Part shown: one piece after another, positions 1,632 through 19,334 of the stretch | Layout of the letters: each line of letters starts with the position of its first letter | How positions within the stretch are numbered: the first letter of the stretch is position 1 | Source of the DNA: a virus | Lineage: Duplodnaviria; Heunggongvirae; Uroviricota; Caudoviricetes | Virus record (IMG/VR): IMGVR_UViG_3300032242_001414 | Span: 9,079 to 73,078 of that record | DNA length: 64,000 bases | Direction: 5' to 3' (one strand) | Program-made: the position numbers and the translations under genes | Notes under the pieces: model-generated | What the model saw: the letters and a program-made list of their open reading frames with translations, nothing else | Database searches by the model: none | What the model was told of the DNA's origin: nothing

Positions 1632-3149
1632 TTAATCAATTGTTACGATTCTTTTAGAAATTTCTTGCTTAATTTCATCTAAAGATTTCACAATTGTATA
1701 CATTTCTACAGCAGATAAAGCTGGTAAGTTGAAATCATACTTCTTAGCTTCAGCTGTGAATCCTTCTTTAGCTTTATCAGCTAAGTTTTCTAATTCACGT
1801 ACAGCATAAGACTCATCCAACTCTAATGTATCAAAATCAAGATCATGTAAGATTTCTGTTGCTTCCTCACGAGGAACAGTCATAATTGGTAAATATTCCC
1901 AACATCTGCCCTTAGATTCACCAATACCTACAACCTTCATAGGATTAATAAGTACAAGAACACTCGTATCACCACATCCTACATAGTGAATTTCATCACT
2001 AGTGAAGTGTAAACCTTCAGCACCACAATCATCAGTATTCCATCTACACTTAGCTGGGTCCATGCTTACAGCTCTACCAATACGAATATCAAATGTTCTA
2101 CTATAAGCATCTGTGAATCTATTCTCTGCTCTATTAGGCAAATCTAGATAAAGATCAGTTAAGTTACCAATCTCTTCACCATATTGCTCTTCACAATGTT
2201 TGTACACTGTACCTGAACCAGAACATTCTGAACAATCACAGCTATCGTCATAATAACAATCATTATCTTCATCATATTCATCAGCTTCACAAGGAACAGT
2301 TCCTGAACCATCACAATATGTACATGGCTCTAGTTCTTCAAATACAGATTTATGAACCATTGTATAATCACCATTCTTTAAGAATACTAAATAATCATCT
2401 GGTTTCTTCTTCCATACAGCCTTCACCTTATTATAAGCATTACTTACAAAGTGAACTAGTTCATTAGATCCATGGAGTGTAACCACATTACGCAATGCTA
2501 CAAAGAAGCCCTGCTTAGTGATACCAAATGCATTCTTCTTCAAGAAGTTGAATAACTTATCTGCTACCTCAGCTCTTGGATTCAAGCAACACCACATAAA
2601 GAATCTGTGTAAAGCCTGAAACTCATCACTATTTGTACCACCATGCTTACCAACCACTTCTAAGAATTCTTCTACAAGTAATGGAGGAAGAGTTCTATTG
2701 ATGCCCTTTAGATATAAAGAACCATCTTTCATCTCAAACTCTTCTAATGTAGCTAAATACTCAGCACCTCTTTGGATAGCCTTAGCTTTCTCATACTCAG
2801 CTTCAGCTTTTCTTCTTTCTGTTCTCACTTCTTCAGAACTAACTAATTCAATTAATTGACCTTCTGATTTAGCATCTTTGGCTGCATAATAATCATTTGT
2901 TGTTGCTGGAGATTTGGTAATAATATTACCATCATTCATTACAATAGTTAGTGTATCATTAACCATTTTAATGTTTAAATAGGGTTTGATACCACCATTT
3001 GTATATGTAGAATTCCATTGATAAGGAGAAGAAGGAGCTATTGCTCCCTCTTCATTATCTAATTGATCAAACGCTTGTTCAATCTTGTTTTCTACTACTC
3101 TTTCAATTGTGCGTTCAATAGCACTTTTAAACCATTTTAAGCTTAACAT
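1632..3149 (-). CDS. DnaJ-type (CxxCxGxG) zinc-finger containing protein, function unknown
   Basis: Track ORF 1632..3185 starts at TTG; the first ATG (MLSLKWFKSA) at 3149 removes the overlap with the upstream gene. The Cys-rich block CTYCDGSGTVPCEADEYDEDNDCYYDDSCDCSECSGSGTVYKHC contains two CxxCxGSGTV repeats, identical in pattern to the DnaJ cysteine-rich zinc-finger repeats. Confidence 0.55.
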   Translation of the reverse strand: MLSLKWFKSAIERTIERVVENKIEQAFDQLDNEEGAIAPSSPYQWNSTYTNGGIKPYLNIKMVNDTLTIVMNDGNIITKSPATTNDYYAAKDAKSEGQLIELVSSEEVRTERRKAEAEYEKAKAIQRGAEYLATLEEFEMKDGSLYLKGINRTLPPLLVEEFLEVVGKHGGTNSDEFQALHRFFMWCCLNPRAEVADKLFNFLKKNAFGITKQGFFVALRNVVTLHGSNELVHFVSNAYNKVKAVWKKKPDDYLVFLKNGDYTMVHKSVFEELEPCTYCDGSGTVPCEADEYDEDNDCYYDDSCDCSECSGSGTVYKHCEEQYGEEIGNLTDLYLDLPNRAENRFTDAYSRTFDIRIGRAVSMDPAKCRWNTDDCGAEGLHFTSDEIHYVGCGDTSVLVLINPMKVVGIGESKGRCWEYLPIMTVPREEATEILHDLDFDTLELDESYAVRELENLADKAKEGFTAEAKKYDFNLPALSAVEMYTIVKSLDEIKQEISKRIVTID

Positions 3150-3162
3150 GTTTTTGCTTTTT

Positions 3163-5520
3163 TTAAATTGTTTGTAATTCTTCAATTGTGTCTACAGTTA
3201 ATTCTTGCTCTAATGGAGCATCTTCAGTTAATTTTAGAGTGTAGTGCTCTAAGTTAACTCTTGTTTTGTGATACTTAAAGAGATCAACAAGTGCAGTCAT
3301 TAATGCTTTATCTTCATAACGAATTGCATATCCCATCTTACTTAACATTGCGTTCAAGAAAGGTAATTTGGTAAGCACCTCATTCACTTGCTTATAGATC
3401 ATATATGTTGGTTGATCAAACAAGTTGTTCTCTTTAGCATGTTCCACTATTATATTTTTGATCTCATCACTAGCATAGTTTCTGTTATTGTTTTTATGAT
3501 ATACTCTTAAAGTTTCTAACTTATCTGCTAGATCAGTAGATATCTCTTTAACAAATTCTATTCTATCAAATATAGCTCTATTATTTCTACATAGGTCTTC
3601 TACTAAGAATTCTGTAGCCATTGTTCTATATGGTCTGTTTTTTCCTTCCATAAATTTATCTAATGTTATCCAGTTATGTAATTCAGCTTTCTGTAAGTTA
3701 TCAAATGTGGCTTGTGCAACAATAACAAACTTTGCATGTTTGTCAAATTGAGACCACCATTTATCCATCTTCTTCTTATCAGCTTCTACAGCATAAACAT
3801 GTAACATATTTACTTTATGGATTTCTTCCATTTTAAATGTGGTAGGAACAAACTTAGCATATTGTTCAATTAATGTATTCTCTGTCTTGGTACCCACCTT
3901 ACCAGAGAATTCACCTTTCATTCTAACCTTCTTAACACCACCCACTGTTGTAGCTTTGGCTAAGATTTTAACTCTCTTAGCTTTCTGAGCAGCTGTCCAT
4001 TCTTCAGGAATAGCAATAGCATCAGCATCTATCATTCTTGCTTCATAAAGACTAATTACATGTCTTAATTCTGTAATGATTTGTCTCCATTGAGATTTAG
4101 GATAGTTCTCTAGTCTTAGCATAGACCAATATGTATGATAATCAACTTGATTACCACTTCTAAGCGTAAAAGGTTTGATATCTTTCTTAACAAATAGCAC
4201 TGTTTTGTAATCAGTTCCTAATATACTTCTTAAATAGTCTTGTTTACTTTTAGTAAGTCTATCTGCAAAATAATAGATATCACCATTGTGGCTACCACCA
4301 AAATCTTGTGGTCTTAAGTTAGTAGTCCAGTAGTTCTTGGCATTACCAAATCTACCATTGTTATATCTAAACTTAATTTGATACTCACCTAAGAAATAAT
4401 CCTTAGCTGTTTCAGCAAGTCTTTTGAAATCTAATAGCTCTACACCTTCTAGTTTAGGTTGTTTCATAGGAGTGGTAGCACGCTCAAGTAATTGTGTTAC
4501 ATCAATTCTACTTGGATATCCTATAATAGAACCATCCATATATTTATATCTATCATTATAGAATTCTAGAATGGATGTGATGTCAGACTTGTCTGTAATG
4601 CTTTCATTATATTTATCCATGAAAACATTTGCTACAGCAATAATTTTATCTATGATAGTTCTTTTAGCTTCTTGAGTATATCTAATAGCTTCTCTGTTAG
4701 GAGTTGGAAATAAACCATCACTCAAAGTAAATCTTAAAGCCATTTTCATATTGATTCTCTCAATACCAAGCTTCTCCCAGTCAATTGGATAGCTAACATT
4801 ATCTAGACATAAATGCATGTCATTATTCTGAGCTAAACTAGAATATTGATAATGCTCAGCTCTATGTATTGTGAAATTATTACTTACATCTCCCCAAGCA
4901 CTATCTACATCAAAATATACACTCTCAAAATAAGCTAATTGCTCCTTAATCTTCTTAGTGAAGTGATATTTATCGTAGTAATCCACTGGAACAATCACCT
5001 TTACACCATTTGGTTCTGTAGTTGGTGTTTCATATAAAAGATCGATACTGTTTGTATCCTCTCCTTCATACATCATATATTTACGTTCTACACCATTCTT
5101 TCTAGCTACGAAATAAAAGCTAGAGCTATAGGCTAATGGAGCTTTGAATCCTAAGCCCATCATACCTAATTCTGTGTTGCTATCACGCTTGGTTGATTTA
5201 CCATATTTACTGATGATATTAACTACATCATCTGCATCTAAACCAATACCAAAATCCTCAACAGCAAACTCAAATGTATCTGTCTTCACTGCTCTCTTAA
5301 ATGAAACAATGATAGGCTTGTCACTTCCAGCTCTTCTATGACTATCCAGTGCATTACTTGCACACTCACGGATAGTAGAGCCTATTGCATCAGAATATAA
5401 ATTCTTACTTAACATCTGCATCAGCACTTGTGCAGAATCTAAGTCTAGTGACATTTTCACAGTTTCCTGTGTTTCTCCCTCTTGGAGAATGTGTGATTCG
5501 GTTTGTTTTTCTAAGATCAT
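3163..5520 (-). CDS. Hsp90/HtpG-like GHKL (Bergerat-fold) ATPase, 785 aa
   Basis: N-terminal LYSDAIGSTIRECASNALDSHRR (cf. HtpG [22 protein letters not shown]), VEDFGIGLDADDV (cf. ISDNGVGMT), ISKYGKSTKR (cf. IAKSGTKSF), ELGMMGLGFKAPLAYSSSFYFVA (cf. LIGQFGVGFYSAFIVA); these are the N, G1 and G2 boxes in Hsp90 order. Confidence 0.65.
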   Translation of the reverse strand: MILEKQTESHILQEGETQETVKMSLDLDSAQVLMQMLSKNLYSDAIGSTIRECASNALDSHRRAGSDKPIIVSFKRAVKTDTFEFAVEDFGIGLDADDVVNIISKYGKSTKRDSNTELGMMGLGFKAPLAYSSSFYFVARKNGVERKYMMYEGEDTNSIDLLYETPTTEPNGVKVIVPVDYYDKYHFTKKIKEQLAYFESVYFDVDSAWGDVSNNFTIHRAEHYQYSSLAQNNDMHLCLDNVSYPIDWEKLGIERINMKMALRFTLSDGLFPTPNREAIRYTQEAKRTIIDKIIAVANVFMDKYNESITDKSDITSILEFYNDRYKYMDGSIIGYPSRIDVTQLLERATTPMKQPKLEGVELLDFKRLAETAKDYFLGEYQIKFRYNNGRFGNAKNYWTTNLRPQDFGGSHNGDIYYFADRLTKSKQDYLRSILGTDYKTVLFVKKDIKPFTLRSGNQVDYHTYWSMLRLENYPKSQWRQIITELRHVISLYEARMIDADAIAIPEEWTAAQKAKRVKILAKATTVGGVKKVRMKGEFSGKVGTKTENTLIEQYAKFVPTTFKMEEIHKVNMLHVYAVEADKKKMDKWWSQFDKHAKFVIVAQATFDNLQKAELHNWITLDKFMEGKNRPYRTMATEFLVEDLCRNNRAIFDRIEFVKEISTDLADKLETLRVYHKNNNRNYASDEIKNIIVEHAKENNLFDQPTYMIYKQVNEVLTKLPFLNAMLSKMGYAIRYEDKALMTALVDLFKYHKTRVNLEHYTLKLTEDAPLEQELTVDTIEELQTI

Positions 5521-5522
5521 AA

Positions 5523-5885
5523 TTAATAGTTTACTTCGATGTTAAATTCTTTTAAGATTTCTTTTGCTTTTAATATGTTTTCTATTTCTTTTTGGTCTGT
5601 AATGTTTTCTTTGTTTAATTTTAAAATTCTAGTGTCTCTTGGTGTATTTACGTAATGCTTCCAGATTCTAGTAAGCTTCCAAAGTTTACCATTTTCAGAA
5701 TACATTGGATCTCCTTGTGCTTTTTCCCAATACTCTTTAGAACGTACAACATTTATAGGTGAAAAGTATTGAACTGTACCACCTCTTCCTTGTCCAAAAT
5801 AAATACCAATACAAAAATCATTACTATTGCTAATTGCTACTAAATCACCTCTGTGGATATCTCCACCATGTTTAACTGTATACAT
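5523..5885 (-). CDS. hypothetical protein (120 aa)
   Basis: ORF track; ATG start; 2-nt gap to upstream gene. Confidence 0.5.
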   Translation of the reverse strand: MYTVKHGGDIHRGDLVAISNSNDFCIGIYFGQGRGGTVQYFSPINVVRSKEYWEKAQGDPMYSENGKLWKLTRIWKHYVNTPRDTRILKLNKENITDQKEIENILKAKEILKEFNIEVNY

Positions 5886-5897
5886 AATTGTGTCTTT

Positions 5898-6617
5898 TTA
5901 GAATGGTGTTCCATCTAACCATTCGATTTGAAAATTGTTGTTGTCTTTTAGAACCTTGTTTACCATTTTAAATGTATCTCCTGATTCCCATTCTGTATTC
6001 TTATAGCTTGCAGATGCTGGATGACTAGTTGCAAATACCCAACTGAATGGATTTACATATTTAACATATCTAGCAGCATCCTTACCTAAGAATATAAATG
6101 GTACTTGTGTAGGATTTAGAATCTCCTCTATGACATATTTAGTGAATGGTTCCCATATCTCCATGTGTGAACCTGCTTTATTCACCTCAACAGTGAGAGA
6201 TGCGTTAAACATTAACACACCCTGATGAGCTAGATAACTTACATCTGGATTCTCTTTATTACAATAGGCACATAACCCACCATAATTCTCTCTTTCTATA
6301 GCATTATAGAATTGTTGTAATGATGGCTGTAATACACCAGTGGTAGAACAACCCATTAACAAACCATCTGCTACAGGAGATCCATTCTTTAGTGTGTGAT
6401 AGGGACAAAAGCCCATTAACACCACCTTTAAATCATCTAGTGAGGTTTCTTTGAAGCATCTATATACATTCTGTGAGAGAGGAGCAATTTTCTTGCCCCT
6501 CTGACTCTCAGATTTGAGATATTTATAGATGTTATCACAAGCTTCACTCTCAATAAATGGTTGCATCTTCAAGTGCCAGCTTTCATGAAACTGATCTTTA
6601 AATTTCTCCCAATTCAT
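5898..6617 (-). CDS. uracil-DNA glycosylase family-1 (UNG) homolog with substituted catalytic motif
   Basis: Collinear with UNG: VVLMGFCPYH (UNG VVILGQDPYH), ADGLLMGC...QPSLQQFYNAIE (AHGLCFSV...PPSLVNIYKEL), LAHQGVLMFNASLTVE (LENQGVLLLNTVLTVR), IWEPFTKYVI (GWETFTDKVI), ATSHPASASY (KAPHPSPLSA). The water-activating Asp and the Gln of GQDPYH are replaced by Cys and Phe; the catalytic His of HPSPLS is retained. Confidence 0.65.
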   Translation of the reverse strand: MNWEKFKDQFHESWHLKMQPFIESEACDNIYKYLKSESQRGKKIAPLSQNVYRCFKETSLDDLKVVLMGFCPYHTLKNGSPVADGLLMGCSTTGVLQPSLQQFYNAIERENYGGLCAYCNKENPDVSYLAHQGVLMFNASLTVEVNKAGSHMEIWEPFTKYVIEEILNPTQVPFIFLGKDAARYVKYVNPFSWVFATSHPASASYKNTEWESGDTFKMVNKVLKDNNNFQIEWLDGTPF

Positions 6618-6618
6618 A

Positions 6619-7386
6619 TTAAAATATTGATAATTGATTAAACATTGACCCTGCTTCTTCTAATGTTAAAGGAGCTACTGGTTCATTATATGCATTAAAG
6701 AACTTATGTGCTTTAATGTGACTATCCATCCATAAGCTAGGATGTGTTTCCTTCATAGCAAATGTTGTGTAATTATATAATTCCCATAAGCTATCAGGAG
6801 CACCATAATCATGTGTAGGATTAGATAACTCTCTAGAGATGATATTTAACTGTGTAGATGTAATAAATTGCTCTTCAAGCATCATTCTACCAATTAACTC
6901 AGCTTTAACACGTCTAGTGATTTCTACTTGCTTCATAGCATCTCTTTCCTTTTGCATCTTCTGAAAAGAATCACCTGCTAATTTGATATAATCTCCAATA
7001 GCCTGTGGTGTGAATGATTGCACCTCACCAACATGCTTCTTTTTGAATGCACCATATTCACCAGATACACAACCATTAGAACATACTAATATGCGTGTAC
7101 CAATAGCAAACTTTAATGTAAGTTGTTTATTGTAGCTATTTTGCCAACCAACTTGTAATTGCATTTCACTATCTGCAACATTGCTAATTGTATATTTTCC
7201 GTTAGCAATTTGTCCATCCTGAGCAGCTGTATATATTTCTTTATCTAATTTGAAACCAGCTTTCTCAATACCTTCTAATGTAAGGTCTATTAATTGTCCA
7301 TGCCCAATAGGCTTATATGTTCTTGTTTGAGCAGGAATATCTGTTCCTAATATCAAACTCTTTGTAGCACTGTAATTATTCTCCAT
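6619..7386 (-). CDS. DUF932-family (phage/plasmid-like) protein
   Basis: RILVCSNGCVSGEYG resembles the LVCSNG signature of DUF932 proteins found in phage recombination/replication modules. Confidence 0.45.
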   Translation of the reverse strand: MENNYSATKSLILGTDIPAQTRTYKPIGHGQLIDLTLEGIEKAGFKLDKEIYTAAQDGQIANGKYTISNVADSEMQLQVGWQNSYNKQLTLKFAIGTRILVCSNGCVSGEYGAFKKKHVGEVQSFTPQAIGDYIKLAGDSFQKMQKERDAMKQVEITRRVKAELIGRMMLEEQFITSTQLNIISRELSNPTHDYGAPDSLWELYNYTTFAMKETHPSLWMDSHIKAHKFFNAYNEPVAPLTLEEAGSMFNQLSIF

Positions 7387-7549
7387 CTTCTGATAGTATA
7401 ATTGTTTTATTAAAATATTTACTTAAAATACCTGATAGGTTTTCTATACCTATACATTCTATTTCATCTCCTTCAGATGTTTCTAACCATTCTATTTCGT
7501 TTTGAATGGATTCAATTAAATCATCTAAATTGTTTGGTCTTTGTATCAT
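7376..7549 (-). CDS. small acidic hypothetical protein (57 aa), not in ORF track
   Basis: Hand translation MIQRPNNLDDLIESIQNEIEWLETSEGDEIECIGIENLSGILSKYFNKTIILSEDGE. Its start forms an ATGA overlap with the stop of the primase-like gene, and its stop overlaps the DUF932 start. Confidence 0.3.
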   Translation of the reverse strand: MIQRPNNLDDLIESIQNEIEWLETSEGDEIECIGIENLSGILSKYFNKTIILSEDGE

Positions 7550-8550
7550 AGAATTCTTTTGTTTATTAAATGATTCTGTATAGCTTGTAAACCATGAGCT
7601 TTAGCTAAATCAGCCCAATCTTTTATTCCCTCTTTAAGATATCTCCTAGGGACATTACAGTAACCAAAGTCAAATAACTTAGTTATCTGCTGAGAATTGG
7701 TAACACCTGTAACATCACTATCAAAACTTAGGATTTGTCTGTCTGAGTTTGCTTTCAAATACTCCACATTCTCATGGGAGAAGCAACCAATACCTTCATT
7801 CTGAACTGCACAGCAGCACGGAAATACCTTCTTCATAACCATATAATCCTTCTTGCTCTTATTGATAAAAGCAGTTTCACAATTAACTATATCTTCTTTA
7901 CCATCCATTGCGGTGATAGGAACATTATTGGGCATCCATTTGCTCTTTTTATCTGCAAATGGTCTATATATCTTCCAATACTGTCCCTCATATAGATAGC
8001 CAAATCTCAATTCATTCTCTGGGAGAACAAACTTACTCTTGTTCAAGTAGACATTCTTAATTGCATAAATGTTATTATCTCTAAGGTCTTGTATATCCTG
8101 GTAATAGCTGGACCAATAATCAAGTTCACTTTTTGTAAACTTTCTAGTGGTCACCTGTATGAAAGAATATCTCTTTTCAAGTTCAGGTTGTTTATAAGAA
8201 GATGTTATTCTCTTATAGTCTTCTGTATATTTACCAGTTGTGATACCAAGATTGAAATCTTTATCAATCAGTCTCAATACATCATCAAATGAAGCTAGGT
8301 TAAATAGTGTCTTGACAAAATCAAAACAATTACCACGTTTATTTGTGTCTGCAAAGTCTATAAATGATAGAAATCCTCTCTTGTTACCAATTACAAATGA
8401 AGGATTGTTCTCTGTTCTGAAGGGGGAATAAGTAACTTTATTGAGCTTCCAATCATGATCAGGCATATAATATCTAAATATATCATACTCACTAATCTTG
8501 TCTAAGATAGCCTCTGCAGTTAACTTAATCTTTCTTTTACCATTAATCAT
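7546..8550 (-). CDS. putative DNA primase (TOPRIM-like)
   Basis: QILSFDSDVTG resembles the DnaG TOPRIM DxD motif (LCFDGDRAG), with an upstream acidic residue (NCETAF); positioned beside SSB-like and helicase genes. Confidence 0.45.
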   Translation of the reverse strand: MINGKRKIKLTAEAILDKISEYDIFRYYMPDHDWKLNKVTYSPFRTENNPSFVIGNKRGFLSFIDFADTNKRGNCFDFVKTLFNLASFDDVLRLIDKDFNLGITTGKYTEDYKRITSSYKQPELEKRYSFIQVTTRKFTKSELDYWSSYYQDIQDLRDNNIYAIKNVYLNKSKFVLPENELRFGYLYEGQYWKIYRPFADKKSKWMPNNVPITAMDGKEDIVNCETAFINKSKKDYMVMKKVFPCCCAVQNEGIGCFSHENVEYLKANSDRQILSFDSDVTGVTNSQQITKLFDFGYCNVPRRYLKEGIKDWADLAKAHGLQAIQNHLINKRIL

Positions 8551-8614: not shown

Positions 8615-9487
8615 TTAATAATCCATATCATCATCAGCAATCACTTTATCTGATGCTACCAGATTATCATCTGGATTGTAATCTTTAATATCTTTGAATG
8701 TATAATAATCTTTACAACCATATTCACCTGTTACGTTTAATACAAAACGCTCATGAGGTTTTAGTTCTTTAGATTTCTTAGCACGTAATGTATTTAATAC
8801 ACCATTGTTACTATAATCTAACAATCTAAATTGCTTCAAGCAATATGAAGGTAAGAATGCTTTGTTATACACAGCTTGATACTCTTTAGTCTCATCTTCT
8901 TTGATTACAGACTTAATTGTAGCTAATGCAACAACATTGGTAGCAAATTCACCACCCACTTGTTGTTTAATATCTCTAACATTACCATTCATAAGTTTCT
9001 TCCACTCTAATTGTAATGTAGATTCAGCATCACGTAAATCAAGATTACCTAACCATGTGCGTAAGAAGTTATAGAAATCTTCTTCACCCACAAATGCTGG
9101 ACGATATTCTCTTGTTGTAAACCAACTAGCTAAATTGTTAGGATCATCAGCCCAAGAACACATACCAACAGCATTGATATATTGTTTCTTAGTTTGATCT
9201 TTGTTCTCTTTAACAGCATCTTCTAAGAAGAATGTCACTTTGAACTTTTCCTTACTTTTCACTTCTTCTAACCAAAAGTCTATACGCAATGTTTTATTGC
9301 CATTTTGACTCTTGCCTAAATACTCAGTAGCTTTACTATCTTCCTTAAGCTCCATGCCTAAGATATCCTTATACTCTTCAGCATCAGGATTGATTGCTAC
9401 CACTTCTGCTTCAAATAACCCTACCTTCTTGGTAAAGTCTGCAGGTAAATTACTCTGTTCTCTTTTCTTTCCACCGATTGTACTCAT
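8615..9487 (-). CDS. hypothetical protein, possible ssDNA-binding protein
   Basis: 290 aa ending in the acidic tail ADDDMDY, reminiscent of SSB C-terminal tails (DDDIPF); adjacent to a Sak4-like ATPase. Confidence 0.35.
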   Translation of the reverse strand: MSTIGGKKREQSNLPADFTKKVGLFEAEVVAINPDAEEYKDILGMELKEDSKATEYLGKSQNGNKTLRIDFWLEEVKSKEKFKVTFFLEDAVKENKDQTKKQYINAVGMCSWADDPNNLASWFTTREYRPAFVGEEDFYNFLRTWLGNLDLRDAESTLQLEWKKLMNGNVRDIKQQVGGEFATNVVALATIKSVIKEDETKEYQAVYNKAFLPSYCLKQFRLLDYSNNGVLNTLRAKKSKELKPHERFVLNVTGEYGCKDYYTFKDIKDYNPDDNLVASDKVIADDDMDY

Positions 9488-12731: not shown

Positions 12732-13354
12732 ATATCTGTTCCTCCTTTAATAATTGGTTTTTCTTCAATTGTTTTACCTTCTCTAATTAATTCAATGAAT
12801 GGTTCAAATGTTCTCTGGTTCAAATACGTAAGAGAATTTTGCATATAACTAAGTTTGTTAGTCTTGCTAGCATAGGAATTCTCTTTCTTTTGAAGCACTT
12901 CATATTTTAGTGCTGCAATCAATTCATCGATGGTATATTCTCCTTCTTGAAGAATAGCATTAAGTTTGGCTTTACAATCATCTTTCTTTACACGCATACT
13001 TCTAGTGCCTGTAAAGTCCTTACCCTTATGGGTAAATGTATCAGTTCCTGGATAAGCTTTCCACCACTCATCAAAATCGTTAGAGTCTTGTTTCTTCTTA
13101 ACTAATTTAGTTTCTGGTGTACCTTCTTCATCTAGAAATCCTAATACTGATTTACCAATAAGAGTAATTCCAAAGTTTTCTGATAGTAAACCTTTTCTTC
13201 TTAATGTTTGACACAATACACTCATCTTGGGATTATCACACAGAGCTGTAGCATCTGCACCCTCATCAACTAATTTTAGGAAATATACTATATCTAAGCT
13301 GTAACCAGCTTTTAATATCTCCTCAAAATGGTAAACTGTAATGTTTAGTTTCAT
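12728..13354 (-). CDS. hypothetical protein (208 aa)
   Basis: ORF track; ATG; 4-nt overlap with the helicase gene. Confidence 0.5.
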   Translation of the reverse strand: MKLNITVYHFEEILKAGYSLDIVYFLKLVDEGADATALCDNPKMSVLCQTLRRKGLLSENFGITLIGKSVLGFLDEEGTPETKLVKKKQDSNDFDEWWKAYPGTDTFTHKGKDFTGTRSMRVKKDDCKAKLNAILQEGEYTIDELIAALKYEVLQKKENSYASKTNKLSYMQNSLTYLNQRTFEPFIELIREGKTIEEKPIIKGGTDI

Positions 13355-13559
13355 GTGTCTTTTTATCTAATATGTTATCTGTGTCTATAACAACAATTGT
13401 AGCAGGCTGTCTTAATTCCTTCTGAAACTCTTGTTCTAAGAGCATTTGTTGTTCCCACAAATATACAACATCTTTAAGAGATTCCCTCTCCCAATCTTGA
13501 TTTATTTTCAAAGCTTGGTCTTTCATTCTCATATTTATTATTGTTCCAAAAATAAGCAC
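13323..13559 (-). CDS. hypothetical protein (78 aa), one of three staggered overlapping ORFs
   Basis: ORF track; protein-like composition; overlaps neighbours by 32 and 86 nt in different frames; the true start may be an internal Met. Confidence 0.3.
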   Translation of the reverse strand: MLIFGTIINMRMKDQALKINQDWERESLKDVVYLWEQQMLLEQEFQKELRQPATIVVIDTDNILDKKTHETKHYSLPF

Positions 13560-13788
13560 AACTTAGTGTTGCTACACCAAATCCATCATGATTATTATCA
13601 AACATGAAATCTAACTTATATGGAGGTTCTGAAAAATATGATTGACCTAAGTCTTCTGGGGTAGCTGTGTATCTATGACAATTCAGTCTTAATAAGCAAC
13701 TCCCTCCCTTGCACATCGATATGTCTGGCATCTTCTGTGTTTTTATTGTGATTAATGTAAATTCGTAAAACTCTTCCTGTATCTTCAA
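13474..13788 (-). CDS. hypothetical Cys-containing protein (104 aa), staggered overlap
   Basis: ORF track; CKGGSCLLRLNCH motif; overlaps both neighbours in other frames. Confidence 0.3.
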   Translation of the reverse strand: MKIQEEFYEFTLITIKTQKMPDISMCKGGSCLLRLNCHRYTATPEDLGQSYFSEPPYKLDFMFDNNHDGFGVATLSCAYFWNNNKYENERPSFENKSRLGEGIS

Positions 13789-13945
13789 TCATTACAACCA
13801 CCTTGCATCTAGCATCCCAATTGTAATATTTAATAACACCATTCTCTATAACTTCTACTTGTGTAGCTAGTGTAGTGTTTAAAATATTTTTACTAGGTAG
13901 TTTGCTCAGGTTTATGTCCCTCGTGCTCATTGGTCTCAGTGCCAT
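13673..13945 (-). CDS. hypothetical protein (90 aa), staggered overlap
   Basis: ORF track; overlaps the thioredoxin 3' end by ~50 nt. Confidence 0.35.
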   Translation of the reverse strand: MALRPMSTRDINLSKLPSKNILNTTLATQVEVIENGVIKYYNWDARCKVVVMIEDTGRVLRIYINHNKNTEDARHIDVQGRELLIKTELS

Positions 13946-14216
13946 TTTGTTTATTTAGTTTAATTGCATCCTTTAAATGGTTTTTAGTCATCAAGCCTTT
14001 GTTTCTGAATACAACAGTGTTACCCTTCATCATTATGATTGTAGGTATACTAGTAACATTGTATCCTCTTGCAGCTGCTTGATCCTCATCAATGTTTATC
14101 TTTTGTACATCAATGTCATCAAATTCAGCTACCACCTCATTAAATGCTGGTCCAAAAGCTTTACATGGTCCACACCATGGTGCACTGAAATAAAGCACTT
14201 GTAGTTTTTCACTCAT
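13893..14216 (-). CDS. thioredoxin
   Basis: Canonical active-site WCGPCK, cis-Pro region SIPTIIMM, ~105 aa thioredoxin fold length. Confidence 0.85.
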   Translation of the reverse strand: MSEKLQVLYFSAPWCGPCKAFGPAFNEVVAEFDDIDVQKINIDEDQAAARGYNVTSIPTIIMMKGNTVVFRNKGLMTKNHLKDAIKLNKQNGTETNEHEGHKPEQTT

Positions 14217-15234: not shown

Positions 15235-15835
15235 AAAATATTAAGTTTGTTTTATTGTTTCTGATACCATAAAGTTGTTTAGCAAAATGGTTATATTTTA
15301 AATTATTAGCATCTGCAGCTTCTTTTATACCATCATAAACTACACCAGTGGATATATCTATTACTTTCCTTTTCTTTAATGAAGGTTTACCTAATTTAGC
15401 TTTACTTAGTTTATCTTTATGTTCTTCAGATAATAATTTACCTGTATTCCAAGGTTTAGTTCCTTTAGGAGGGCCAAAAGAAGTTCTTCTTAATCCTGTA
15501 TTAATAGCATGTCTAACATTTTCAGATTGAGTACACCATTCCAGATTCTCAATTCTATTATCTGTTTTTATACCATTAATATGATTAACTACTGGTTTAT
15601 TATCAGGATTTGGTATGAATGACTCTGCAATTAATCTATGAACAAGATGTCTTTTGTTTGTATCACTCATTCTAAGTTCTAATGACATATAACCATTTTT
15701 CATTAAAGCTATCTTTAATAATTTACCTGGCTTTTGTCCACTCATTCTATTAGAATGTTGTGACTTAACATTACCTAAGTTACTAATTTGATACAATCCT
15801 TCATATTCAGGTATATCTTTCCAAATTTCTGTCAT
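15206..15835 (-). CDS. HNH homing endonuclease with NUMOD motifs
   Basis: Track ORF starts at TTG (15880); ATG at 15835 gives MTEIWKDIPEYEGLYQISNLGNVKS (NUMOD4 motif), then VHRLIAESFIPNPDNKPVVNHINGIKTDNRIENLEWCTQSEN (HNH_3) and a KPWNTGK...LSKAKLGK NUMOD3-like repeat. Confidence 0.8.
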   Translation of the reverse strand: MTEIWKDIPEYEGLYQISNLGNVKSQHSNRMSGQKPGKLLKIALMKNGYMSLELRMSDTNKRHLVHRLIAESFIPNPDNKPVVNHINGIKTDNRIENLEWCTQSENVRHAINTGLRRTSFGPPKGTKPWNTGKLLSEEHKDKLSKAKLGKPSLKKRKVIDISTGVVYDGIKEAADANNLKYNHFAKQLYGIRNNKTNLIFYEGKSRDNS

Positions 15836-15889
15836 TATATTATTTTTGGCAAAGGTAAACAGAATAATTGATACTACCAAATATTTTCT

Positions 15890-16114
15890 CTATTGATCTT
15901 TCCCATATGATTCTATATATTGTTTAACTTCTTCCCAATAAGGATGATCTCCAGCTTCTAATTTCTCATTAGCTATTAAATGTTTCACTGCTATTAATGC
16001 AGATGCTTTAGCTATTGCTGTAACTACATCCATATCTAGTTTATGTCCCACCTCTGCTAGTACTGCTAGTGAGAATTCAGCAATTAGAAAGTTTGCTTGT
16101 GCTTGTGCTTCCAT
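15890..16114 (-). CDS. hypothetical protein (74 aa)
   Basis: ORF track. Confidence 0.45.
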   Translation of the reverse strand: MEAQAQANFLIAEFSLAVLAEVGHKLDMDVVTAIAKASALIAVKHLIANEKLEAGDHPYWEEVKQYIESYGKDQ

Positions 16115-17163: not shown

Positions 17164-17382
17164 ATAGGTTTGGTTGTAGTATCTATCTCCGCTAAACATA
17201 GTTTTATTTATTTCTAATGCTTCATCTAAATCACACGCTTTGTAACCTCTATCATAAGCATTTACTATTTGCTCTTTTTCTTTTTCAAGATATATATTAA
17301 ATCCTTTATCAAAGATTTCGTTAGCCATATAAGGATAATTAGCTTTTAATTCATCAAACCATTCTTGCATTGCTGTTTTCAT
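17149..17382 (-). CDS. hypothetical protein (77 aa), MKTAMQE-paralog B
   Basis: N-terminus MKTAMQEWFDELK; immediately downstream of the DNA polymerase gene. Confidence 0.5.
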   Translation of the reverse strand: MKTAMQEWFDELKANYPYMANEIFDKGFNIYLEKEKEQIVNAYDRGYKACDLDEALEINKTMFSGDRYYNQTYNQNK

Positions 17383-19334
17383 TAGAATAAACTTAATTGG
17401 TTCTTGTCAATATTGACTTTTCTTCTTTTACCTTCTAATTGTATCTTATGTACAATACGCTCAGCACGCTCTATATAATATGCGTGATTAATATTATCAA
17501 GAGAATAATCTGGTGATAGATGATTACATACAGTCATCAACCAATCACCTGCTTCCACTTGTGATACATCTGCAGCATTGGATGTACATTCAGGATTCTT
17601 AACCTTTAATAGTTTCTCTCCTGTATTAGATACATAATATCTAATTAGCTTGTTATATATTGTTTTCTCACTAGCTGAGTGACCTTCATAATGAAAGTCT
17701 TTACTAGATTTCTGACGTAAACAAAAGTCATATATATTCTTCCAATTACGAATAGTATCAGCAACAGGGATATTGCTAGTATAGTATAACTCGAGGGCAA
17801 TTGGAACAATCCTTGCACTTTTGTTCTTATGTAGCTCAAAGTCCGTGAGAAAGTCACCTTTCTTTTTAATTTCTCCATCTGTTTTGATTGCTAAATAGTC
17901 ATTAACTGTGCTGAATATAATCTTCTGGTAGTCTGTACGCTCTAGCTCATAACTAGTTAGCTCCATCCACCATTTGTTTATCTCATGCATCTTATCTATC
18001 TTATCTTTTGTTACCATAATGGTAACACCATCAGTATTAGCTGATATTATATTTATATCATTCAACTCATACTGCTCGATAAGCATAAGTAAACTCAATT
18101 CACCTGTAATAGTGGTAAACATAGTCAGTTGTCTATCATATATCCAGTTTTGCATATCACTAGACTTACCATAAACACTATTAACAGCAAGCTTAAGAGC
18201 ACCCACAATACCTTTGATTTTCTTATCTTTCTTAGCCAAAGGTTTAAGTTCGAGTCTCTTTTCAAACATCTGTTTATAGCCTCTGAGAAATTCAGGACCA
18301 AGGTGAGCAGGATAGCGAGCGTTGTTGATAATAATGGCAGGATAATAAGAAGACACATCCCAATCCACAATAAATGTTTCATCATCAGCTTCAAATATTT
18401 TAGGTTTATTCTCTGTATGCAGACCACCCTTGGCAAATGTATATGTATTACCATAGAATTCTAATGACTCTTTAAAATCATCAGTGAGTGTGAATATCTG
18501 CTTCTTGACATGCTTTAAGAACTGTTGAAGCTCTGGTGTCTGGAATGCTATATAATCAGCAATACAGTTCTTTGCTTTAACTTCCTTACGGAAATATCCT
18601 TTCTTTGGTAGTTCAGTGTAATGTATACCCTTCTCTTGGCAATAATACTTTTTAATCATCTCATCACCAATCTTACTGTCAGAATAGTTAAGACAAGGAA
18701 TACCAAACTCATCAAATATATCTTGTCTGAGTTCTATTTGGTTATTACCCTTGTACAATGGATGTTCAGTGTTACCTGTTGTCACCTTATAGAATTCATA
18801 GGTAGCCATTACATCATTATGACAATAATCCTTAGTTAGTTGAATCTCATCATCAGTCATATCAGTTTTACTGTGGTGGATAGGCATCTCTTCAATGTTC
18901 TCCAGATCCATCTCAAACTCTAATCGTTTTAATGATACACGTCTATTCTTATTATCATAGTGATTAACTCTGAATAAATCAATTTGCTTATTGTGTAACC
19001 ATTCCTCTTTATATTCAGGGAATACATCATAATTAGCATCATGTATTACATCTGCAGCCTTCTGAGCTATTATAGCTGTAACTTCAAGAGCACTTAATTC
19101 ATGCCATTGCTGATGATTTCTAATGATCCATTCAACCACCTGACTATCGAATCTAAGGTTATTATAGCCCACCCAATAGTATTCATCATATTGTTCAGTA
19201 AATCTAACAAATGCATCTAATTGATTAGTGTTTTTACTCACCTCGAAATCATGCATTGCACCAGTTCCAGGATTATATATGCTAACAAGAAACAGCTCCT
19301 GCATTGTTTCTATATCATAGATGAGTACGTTCAT
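17382..19334 (-). CDS. family B DNA polymerase (compact, 650 aa)
   Basis: Exo I LIYDIET, Exo II YNNLRFD, Exo III YCHNDV; polymerase motif A DVSSYYPAII (DxxSLYPS), motif B KLAVNSVYGK (KxxxNSxYG), motif C ISANTDGVTI (YxDTDS-like). Confidence 0.8.
   Translation of the reverse strand: MNVLIYDIETMQELFLVSIYNPGTGAMHDFEVSKNTNQLDAFVRFTEQYDEYYWVGYNNLRFDSQVVEWIIRNHQQWHELSALEVTAIIAQKAADVIHDANYDVFPEYKEEWLHNKQIDLFRVNHYDNKNRRVSLKRLEFEMDLENIEEMPIHHSKTDMTDDEIQLTKDYCHNDVMATYEFYKVTTGNTEHPLYKGNNQIELRQDIFDEFGIPCLNYSDSKIGDEMIKKYYCQEKGIHYTELPKKGYFRKEVKAKNCIADYIAFQTPELQQFLKHVKKQIFTLTDDFKESLEFYGNTYTFAKGGLHTENKPKIFEADDETFIVDWDVSSYYPAIIINNARYPAHLGPEFLRGYKQMFEKRLELKPLAKKDKKIKGIVGALKLAVNSVYGKSSDMQNWIYDRQLTMFTTITGELSLLMLIEQYELNDINIISANTDGVTIMVTKDKIDKMHEINKWWMELTSYELERTDYQKIIFSTVNDYLAIKTDGEIKKKGDFLTDFELHKNKSARIVPIALELYYTSNIPVADTIRNWKNIYDFCLRQKSSKDFHYEGHSASEKTIYNKLIRYYVSNTGEKLLKVKNPECTSNAADVSQVEAGDWLMTVCNHLSPDYSLDNINHAYYIERAERIVHKIQLEGKRRKVNIDKNQLSLF

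Follow-up and report, generated by a model that had tools for sequence, protein, structure and literature searches.

Here we report a family-1 uracil-DNA glycosylase (UDG) homolog that lacks the catalytic aspartate, encoded on the minus strand (5898..6617) of a 64,000-nucleotide stretch of IMG/VR virus record IMGVR_UViG_3300032242_001414 (positions 9,079 to 73,078 of that record; hereafter, the window). The window belongs to an uncultured environmental crAss-like phage, and the gene product, hereafter the UNG-like protein, carries GFCPYH where canonical enzymes have GQDPYH. Our best explanation, to which we assign a probability of about 0.5, is that it serves as a uracil-recognition module which is tethered to the replisome and excises uracil weakly or not at all, a UNG-derived accessory protein rather than a fast repair glycosylase.

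In UNG enzymology, the aspartate of motif A serves as water activator and cation stabiliser and His187 (E. coli numbering) as stabiliser of the uracil anion (PMC1936997, PMC8730318), and human UNG loses activity dramatically when Asp145 is replaced, even if the substitute is Glu (PMC8730318). This aspartate is treated as defining for UNG, and the large and abundant natural clade described here discards it and keeps the uracil pocket under strong selection; its members are nonetheless annotated throughout as plain 'uracil-DNA glycosylase'. In the literature that we searched, the UDG of Crassvirales is an item of gene-content lists or a presumed anti-defence gene; no description of an Asp-less family-1 subfamily and no comment on the active site of Crassvirales UDGs was found in this search, which left most subscription journals outside. 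The 'UDG' calls in Crassvirales gene-content tables would hide functionally different proteins, and the clade may offer a testable handle on uracil handling during replication in crAss-like phages, the dominant gut and marine viruses of Bacteroidota.

Fold and active site of the UNG-like protein

The gene and its functional positions are as follows:
5898..6617, minus strand: UNG-like gene (family-1 UDG fold, Asp-less subfamily), an uninterrupted open reading frame (ORF) of 239 amino acids from ATG to stop, N-terminus MNWEKF
6396..6413, minus strand: motif A GFCPYH, residues 69-74 (from alignments), with the Cys71 codon TGT at 6405-6407
6204..6206, minus strand: Asn138 in GVLMFN, aligned with the uracil-specificity residue Asn123 (E. 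coli) / Asn204 (human)
6006..6023, minus strand: motif B HPASAS, residues 199-204 (from alignments), with His199 at the position of catalytic His187 (E. coli)
5901..5918, minus strand: C-terminal tip LDGTPF-COOH, residues 234-239, an acidic Pro-Phe tail resembling the tip of the bacterial protein that binds single-stranded DNA (SSB)

By sequence comparison and by its predicted structure, the UNG-like protein is unambiguously a member of family 1, in agreement with the first-pass annotation of this stretch, which had been made from the DNA letters alone. The Pfam UDG domain (PF03167) was matched above its cutoff (E 5.5e-8, 33.4 vs 24.3 bits). All five NCBIfam UNG equivalog models were matched near full length, the best with E 3.4e-37, and every one of the five scores lay under its curated cutoff (128.4 bits vs 162 for the best). 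The PHROG match was to phrog_12143, a family of 'unknown function' (E 3.8e-37), and 57 distinct solved UNG sequences in PDB were matched, the best with E 7e-17. An AlphaFold2 (AF2) model built with 145 homologs had a predicted local distance difference test (pLDDT) score of 96.6 and a predicted template-modelling (pTM) score of 0.92. In a Foldseek comparison with PDB, this model was superimposed on human UNG-DNA complexes with template-modelling (TM) scores of 0.83/0.88 (TMq 0.83), a root-mean-square deviation of 2.1 A and E 1.5e-16, and its best viral structure matches (BFVD) were the UNGs of giant viruses and herpesviruses.

The substitution in motif A does not depend on the choice of alignment. 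GFCPYH lies gap-free over GQDPYH (VVLMGFCPYHT on VVILGQDPYHG) in three independent phmmer pairwise alignments to solved UNGs, and Cys71 also takes the Asp position in a MAFFT alignment of E. coli Ung with 134 representatives and in the NCBIfam profile alignments, so the replacements of Asp by Cys and of the adjacent Gln by Phe stand as originally read. We looked for an alignment placing Asp or Glu at the water-activating position and obtained none; neither residue occurs within or adjoining motif A of the UNG-like protein in these alignments. SHPASAS lies over HPSPLS in the pairwise and multiple alignments, which likewise bears out the earlier equation of its histidine with the motif-B His. 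Three independent, near-identical contigs have the same TGT codon, as do many contigs of greater divergence, and a sequencing error is therefore not its source.

In comparison with the family-1 enzymes E. coli Ung, human UNG and herpesvirus UL2, the protein shares the fold (TM 0.8-0.88) and collinear motifs, with conservation of the motif-A Pro-Tyr, the Pro-rich-loop Ser, the GVLLLN Asn and the motif-B His-Pro. Of the two phosphate-pinching serines of E. coli Ung, Ser88 in the Pro-rich loop is retained and Ser166 in the Gly-Ser loop is not. The residues of E. coli Ung that are retained are Pro65, Tyr66 (Tyr73 in the UNG-like protein), His67 (His74; human His148), Ser88 (Ser99, in QPSL), Asn123, His187 and Pro188. 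It differs from the family-1 enzymes by Gln63->Phe, Asp64->Cys, Phe77->Met (Met88), Leu191->Ala (Ala203), Lys in place of the Gly-Ser loop Ser166 (Gly178-Lys179), a C-terminal Pro-Phe (PF) tip and a hairpin after motif A that is longer by 4 residues, the sole insertion relative to E. coli Ung. The claim that the protein is collinear with UNG over all conserved blocks thus holds roughly, with exceptions at Leu191, Phe77, Gln63 and the Gly-Ser loop Ser.

Some of these differences are not specific to the Asp-less proteins. The uracil-stacking Phe77 position is occupied by Met88 in the window phage and its close clade, and Phe, Met and Leu alternate there across the phage family. Replacement of the intercalating Leu191 by Ala is near-universal in the phage clade, Asp-bearing members included, and by analogy with the poxvirus protein D4 it predicts poor binding of Ugi (PMC1936997). 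The protein lacks two defining features of UNG, the Asp and the Leu, and scores below the curated equivalog thresholds; we file it as a UNG-fold derivative and not as a uracil-DNA glycosylase.

Two second-shell residues, Asp84 (His73 in E. coli Ung) and Cys90 (Val79), are nearly fixed across the whole phage UNG-like radiation, again including its Asp-bearing members, and at these positions cellular UNGs differ (AHGL...V). Two readings of such residues were considered and rejected. Asp84 as a relocated acid was dismissed: Asp-bearing relatives keep it equally (46/61), so that it does not compensate for the lost Asp. Also dismissed were a metal or Fe-S site of four Cys and a pairing of Cys71 with Cys90: Cys90 occurs in every group, whereas Cys27 and Cys54 occupy hydrophobic-core positions of UNG and are unconserved beyond the close clade, and variants with Ala71 retain these cysteines.

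Motif A and selection among related phages

A search of a large protein database returned 1244 homologs of the UNG-like protein at E≤1e-5. Its 120 closest clusters (68-100% identity, on contigs of up to ~116 kb) have motif A in the form GMCPYH (98), GMAPYH (16) or GFCPYH (6), and none has Asp. From two IMG/VR scans came 30 and 80 loci belonging to this clade; the latter have Cys in 65 cases, Ser in 8 and Ala in 7, and one additional outlier has a degenerate pocket. All clade members at these loci retain Asn123 and His187 and have Met where Phe77 would be. A broader sample of 135 full-length representatives, clustered at 50% and reaching down to ~30% identity, has Asp at this position in 61, Glu in 10 and other residues in 6, while 37 have Cys, Ser or Ala (C/S/A) with Asn123 and His187 intact and 21 additionally lack Asn123 and/or His187. 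Judged from these alignments, loss of the Asp is a clade trait found in hundreds of environmental crAss-like phages with the signature G-[LMFY]-[C/S/A]-P-Y-H, and we treat its extended form, G-[LMFY]-[CSA]-P-Y-H-[TS], as a subfamily signature.

Among deposited crAss-like phages the canonical form prevails, as in cr111_1, DAC15, Dulem virus 41 and Fpv1, which have GQDPYP. No cultured phage with the C/S/A form was found. The cultured Flavobacterium phage FPSV-S29 (L116 2989-3732) has GEEPYP in a protein otherwise near-identical to that of Fpv1 (L002 5887-6636, GQDPYP), and Cellulophaga phage phi14:2 (L001 7980-8690) has GKEPYR, with Asp in place of His187. All six proteins are annotated as 'uracil-DNA glycosylase', which for these Flavobacterium and Cellulophaga phage proteins is probably too confident; they would make natural test pairs. 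A separate observation concerns L117 (CAKLQH020000011.1, 'Acinetobacter phage MD-2021a'), which holds genes of type II secretion as well as cmk, rpsA and a bacterial ung of canonical type and looks like a bacterial contig filed as phage; the matches to 'Listeria phage LM 4-11-1/4-14-1' may be a similar case.

Related phages conserve the Cys in part. Asp is never restored, Cys swaps with Ala and Ser, and GFCPYH itself is a minority spelling (6/120). The sister group of the window protein, at 82-85% identity, has Ala71 and shares the residues of the window protein at all other subclade-specific positions. The change between Cys and Ala requires two nucleotide substitutions (TGT<->GCT) and occurred a second time independently in L026 (62% identity), and Ser occupies the position in other subgroups. 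Because Cys swaps with Ala and Ser, an obligatory thiol nucleophile is argued against.

These swaps bear directly on a reading in which Cys71, activated by His74, acts as a nucleophile or thiolate and traps the C1' oxocarbenium, leaving a covalent adduct at uracil as a family-1 analogue of UdgX. UdgX captures uracil-DNA covalently by a His in a specific inserted loop. Cys is indeed the commonest state (103/119 close homologs and 65/80 loci), 16/18 Cys-type representatives have His at +3 from it, and UdgX of Mycobacterium smegmatis sets the precedent of a UDG-fold protein forming a tight, specific complex with uracil-DNA, recognised without turnover (PMC4787834). On the other hand, UdgX is family-4-like whereas the UNG-like protein belongs to family 1 and has no inserted loop of the UdgX type, and its Cys is replaced by the non-nucleophilic Ala within its own subclade. 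We regard such a covalent trap as quite unlikely. If the Cys or Ser forms nevertheless hold uracil-DNA tightly and uncut, they might become reagents for uracil detection.

Selection on the gene was estimated from the ratio of nonsynonymous to synonymous substitution rates (dN/dS) by the pairwise Nei-Gojobori method. Within the clade, the median for the UNG-like gene was 0.19 (range 0.05-0.33). In a second comparison, of window genes with those of 14 loci, the medians were 0.13 for the UNG-like gene, 0.11 for primase, 0.12 for SNF2, 0.08 for DnaB, 0.07 for Sak4, 0.19 for the 290-residue protein p290, and 0.23 for both rIIA and DUF932. Constraint on the UNG-like gene matches that on primase and helicases. 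Across its 119 closest homologs, 87 positions are invariant, including Pro72, Tyr73, His74, Met88, Ser99, Asn138, His199 and Pro200; Ala201 and Ala203 of motif B are likewise invariant in the close clade, and Asn138 is also invariant in the 80 IMG/VR loci. Since dN/dS is low and the pocket positions are invariant, the apparatus for uracil recognition and leaving-group stabilisation is under selection despite the loss of the Asp.

The same data make it hardly credible that the gene is a decaying, functionless remnant of UNG. The catalytic Asp is gone and some relatives lost more, but the ORFs are intact in all of more than 110 loci and 87 positions do not vary. The pseudogene explanation was ruled out by dN/dS values (0.13-0.19) equal to those of primase and SNF2.

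The main rival reading is that the protein still works as a glycosylase, slowly, and repairs phage DNA by a dissociative route in which His199 stabilises the uracil anion and His74, possibly with the Cys or Ser side chain, positions the water; we consider it possible but less likely than the replisome-tethered module. The D64N (E. coli) and D145N (human) mutants of UNG retain ~10^-3 to 10^-4 of activity, in the range of the slow natural glycosylases MUG and TDG. UDG families 2, 3 and 5 (MUG/TDG, SMUG1 and UDGb) have Asn or Ala at the water-activating position and rely on leaving-group stabilisation, and family-5 UDGb is active with Ala at the position of the motif-A Asp; these enzymes have other motifs and belong to other families than the UNG-like protein of the window. 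In the latter, pocket and leaving-group residues are all invariant under strong purifying selection, and retention of His199 is the strongest point in favour of slow catalysis. Furthermore, His at +3 is enriched in C/S/A representatives (26/37, vs 5/61 in Asp-bearing ones, which mostly have Pro; raw Fisher p 2e-10, shared ancestry ignored), and the equivalent His148 of human UNG lies at the catalytic water (PMC8730318). However, most of the C/S/A members group together and the enrichment may be the signature of a single clade, the presence of Ala71 in close relatives indicates that the side chain is dispensable, and the failure to regain Asp across hundreds of lineages is hard to explain under selection for fast repair.

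A candidate replisome-associated role

The UNG-like gene occupies a fixed position in the minus-strand replication module, which runs from a family-A type DNA polymerase through thioredoxin, DnaB, SNF2 helicase, Sak4, p290 and primase to a 57-amino acid ORF (p57), DUF932, the UNG-like gene, a 120-amino acid ORF (p120), rIIA and rIIB. The members of this module discussed below are:
7546..8550, minus strand: DNA primase, the constant upstream neighbour (phrog_12622, E 2.6e-32)
6619..7386, minus strand: DUF932 gene (Pfam DUF932, E 8.8e-7), with the UNG-like start 1 nucleotide after its stop
5523..5885, minus strand: 120-amino acid ORF, 12 nucleotides downstream of the UNG-like gene, a common but not universal neighbour
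8615..9487, minus strand: 290-amino acid ORF (p290) between Sak4 and primase, C-terminus ...ADDDMDY
17382..19334, minus strand: DNA polymerase of family A type, 650 amino acids, candidate partner (phrog_1252, E 3.6e-138)
13893..14216, minus strand: thioredoxin between DnaB and the family-A polymerase (Pfam E 4.5e-20)
1632..5520, minus strand: adjacent rIIA-like (785 amino acids, GHKL ATPase N-terminus, 3163-5520) and rIIB-like (505 amino acids) genes

The order DnaB-SNF2-Sak4-p290-primase-(p57)-(DUF932)-UNG-like-(p120)-rIIA-rIIB is held in 30/30 related loci. DUF932 is missing in four of them (L013, L020, L025 and L034), and in L013, L020 and L034 the primase stop overlaps the UNG-like start, an arrangement also found in Flavobacterium phage Fpv1. 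DUF932 is not an obligate partner of the UNG-like gene, because some relatives do without it.

The same slot is also filled by relatives that have lost the pocket. P0134, which is 42% identical to the window protein, has GPPPSY as motif A, His for Asn123 and no motif-B His, and its locus (L120) reads PolA ... DnaB-SNF2-Sak4-p291-primase-p57-DUF932-p74-UNG-like ... rIIA-rIIB, with neighbours 58-75% identical to the window proteins. At L027, a C/S/A locus whose neighbours have diverged to the same extent, identity between the UNG-like protein and that of the window is 58%; given 42% vs 58% at equal neighbour divergence, the pocket-less form evolved faster yet remains an intact ORF. Within the same lineage, the slot at L122 is filled by the Asp-bearing P0124 (FMDPYN), so that three grades coexist in one lineage: the Asp type (L122), the C/S/A type (L027-30) and the degenerate type (L120). 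An IMG/VR scan with P0134 gave no match, and a scan with the alignment of degenerate forms returned C/S/A-clade loci only.

Among the 21 degenerate representatives, column conservation falls to 0.22-0.30 in motif B, 0.39 in the Pro-rich loop and 0.38 in motif A, and stands at 0.44-0.62 in the first 40 residues and 0.54 in the C-terminal block. These forms are also without Asn123 and the intercalation loop and keep the N-terminal helices, and Pro238 and Phe239 are conserved in at least 75% of them; in 11 aligned degenerate members the last Phe is invariant and the Pro nearly so. Because pocket-less forms persist in the same slot with the N-terminus and the PF tip, retention of the family in these phages appears to be independent of uracil excision, and this persistence also speaks against a slow glycosylase. 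The clade of the window protein looks like an intermediate grade in which the Asp was lost and the pocket kept. The sister lineages in this one slot represent every step from a canonical enzyme to a pocket-less scaffold, a natural experiment in turning an enzyme into a non-catalytic part of the replisome; poxvirus D4 and the polymerase domain of N4-like phages are inferred to have taken this route.

A feature shared by these grades is the acidic C-terminal tip. A PF end is present in 167/196 unique clade sequences, 161/167 of which have Asp or Glu in the four positions before it (~41% expected from composition), with basic residues rare there. It is found in 16/21 pocket-degenerate representatives and in 10/11 of the aligned degenerate members, and the UNG-like ORF is the only one of 64 window ORFs to end in PF. 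Variants include LDGTPF (window phage), DEEDPF, DAEDPF, YEEPPF, LDELPF and ...EEETDGLPF, and the canonical UDG of the crAss-like Dulem virus 41 has the C-terminus EYDEEETDGLPF. In the AF2 model, pLDDT is under 90 at 6 residues only, with a mean of 82 over the final 10-residue block.

In phage T7, gp2.5 and gp4 have acidic tails ending in Phe that bind the T7 polymerase. Bacterial SSB has the C-terminus DFDDDIPF, whose IPF end docks on DnaG primase, ExoI, PriA and RecO (PMC10143822); docking of the SSB tip onto partner proteins is also described in a second source (PMC10164576), and E. coli UDG is itself a docking partner (PDB 3uf7, among the structures matched). The UNG-like clade resembles SSB in its probably flexible, acidic C-terminus ending in hydrophobic-Pro-Phe and differs in that the tail is much shorter (6-8 residues), less acidic and carried on a glycosylase fold. 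By analogy, the PF tip would tether the UNG-like protein to some replisome protein of the phage or the host, and its conservation suggests a concrete docking mechanism.

We propose that the UNG-like protein would still capture flipped-out uracil. Since Ala replaces the duplex-intercalating Leu across the entire phage clade, the substrate would probably be single-stranded or template DNA. Cleavage of the bond is expected to be orders of magnitude slower in the absence of the Asp, and any residual turnover would rely on His199 to stabilise the uracil anion and on His74 to position the water. His148 of human UNG has been named together with Asp145 at the catalytic water as a possible helper (PMC8730318; PMC2699497), which makes His74 the obvious candidate for this residual role. 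The PF tip would dock into an SSB-tail-type pocket on a phage or host replisome protein, and the selected function would combine replication-coupled reading or marking of uracil with a structural role in the replisome. The first-pass annotation had also proposed an attenuated uracil-binding protein or sensor, or an enzyme with altered chemistry; the former fits the invariant pocket and the pocket-less relatives seen in the alignments, and the swaps with Ala and Ser speak against a special role for the Cys side chain.

Use of a UNG in the replisome independently of catalysis would follow the logic of poxvirus D4/E4, a herpesvirus UNG and the UDG domain of N4-like polymerases. Vaccinia D4 has a catalysis-independent role in processivity, with motifs GIDPYP and HPAARDR and no intercalating Leu (PMC1936997). 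D4/E4 thus shares with the UNG-like protein the family-1 fold, the absence of the Leu and an HPAA-like motif B, and GIDPYP resembles the G[QM]DPYP of Asp-bearing phage relatives (PMC1936997). D4 differs in that it keeps Asp, Asn and His, is an active enzyme and docks through A20, of which no homolog is known in the window phage; D4/E4 chains match only residues 132-236 of the UNG-like protein (E ~1e-3), with no close sequence relationship. The UNG of the gammaherpesvirus MHV68 is reported to bind replication factors independently of its catalytic residues. In N4-like phages the UDG domain of PolA has lost its catalytic residues, whereas polymerase-UDG fusions of the SPO1/SP15 type are active and read dU ahead of the fork (bioRxiv 10.1101/2025.03.26.645540). 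These PolA-fused domains resemble the case described here as replication-coupled modules with active and inactivated forms, and the window phage also has a family-A type polymerase. They differ in being fused and, where stated, of family 2 or 4, whereas the UNG-like protein is a free-standing, primase-linked family-1 protein with its pocket retained.

A related but rather unlikely possibility is that Cys71 and His74, possibly with Asp84, form a thiol centre that traps C1' covalently or holds uracil without cutting, as a read-ahead sensor clamped to the family-A replisome via the PF tip. If true, it would be a free-standing phage counterpart of UdgX and of the uracil-sensing pocket of archaeal polymerases.

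Several points weigh against the replisome-tethered module. The fixed post-primase position, the pocket-less relatives and the PF tip suggest replisome association, and this support is indirect. Beyond the last Trp of the fold the PF tail measures just 6-8 residues, in the window phage it is short and has a single Asp (LDGTPF), about 15% of clade members, including the GLSPYH subgroup, do without it, and instead of docking it could serve to cap the structure. The neighbour-joining tree is too star-like to be trusted on how often and in which sequence the Asp was lost, or on whether the degenerate forms are monophyletic; only the recent Cys<->Ala events are secure. Poxvirus D4 keeps its catalytic residues, and the analogy is one of logic, not of state. 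Finally, the strict retention of His199, which serves mainly leaving-group stabilisation, argues that some chemistry is still selected, favouring a slow enzyme or a mixed role. A tethered module and a slow glycosylase can overlap, as D4 illustrates. Neither an AP (apurinic/apyrimidinic) endonuclease nor a ligase was found in the window, which counts against repair as the main role of such an enzyme.

Neighbouring genes and nucleotide metabolism

The window has a G+C content of 33.6%, and its plus strand encodes a crAss-type muzzle protein, terminase, portal and major capsid protein. The 9 kb around the UNG-like gene had no match in a megablast search of GenBank phages, and among deposited sequences the protein is closest to UDGs from Crassvirales and from Flavobacterium and Cellulophaga phages, with identities of no more than 32%. 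The UNG-like gene is the only UDG-superfamily gene among the window ORFs; no second, canonical UDG was detected among ORFs of at least 70 amino acids in the 64-kb window, with ~25 kb of the genome lying beyond it and partly seen via relatives.

A shift of specificity to a modified base, such as 5-hydroxymethyluracil or another replacement of thymine in a non-canonical genome, is very unlikely in our view. Phe77->Met and Gln63->Phe alter the lining of the pocket, and a relative carries a Fringe-like glycosyltransferase near its dUTPase. Nevertheless, Tyr73, which blocks 5-substituents, and Asn138, which faces uracil, are invariant, and Met, Phe and Leu vary freely at position 77 in Asp-bearing relatives too. 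In a close relative, the contig that holds locus L008, where the UNG-like protein is 85% identical to that of the window and has GMAPYH, genes for a dUTPase, RecA and a class II ribonucleotide reductase lie downstream of rIIB. The window ORFs include neither a hydroxymethylase of the thymidylate-synthase type nor a DNA-modifying enzyme that the searches could detect. Within the window and the relatives seen, a uracil-containing or hypermodified genome is unsupported, and the suggestion that the protein bears on non-canonical bases in this phage was not upheld. In the relative L080, the dUTPase lies at 13218-13658 and the Fringe-like glycosyltransferase ~1.7 kb on, at 15325-16056 (Pfam E 3.3e-7).

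The polymerase at 17382-19334 had no Pfam match at E≤0.01 and no PDB sequence match; its homolog in L120 has DNA_pol_A and DNA_pol_A_exo1 Pfam matches, and on this comparison the window enzyme is, by sequence, a very divergent family-A polymerase. The phage thioredoxin could work with the polymerase, as thioredoxin does in T7, or with a class II ribonucleotide reductase. Neither the 120-amino acid ORF nor p290 had a Pfam, PHROG or PDB match. The latter is conserved in all related loci, and its acidic aromatic tail alone makes it a candidate phage SSB; it may be the unrecognised SSB of this lineage. The rIIA and rIIB genes lie directly downstream of the replication genes, are kept in all relatives and are the fastest-evolving of the block (dN/dS 0.23). 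In L120 (9625-12875), the rIIA homolog is split into ORFs of 121 and 605 amino acids with a LAGLIDADG homing-endonuclease ORF between them, which looks like an intron or mobile-element insertion.

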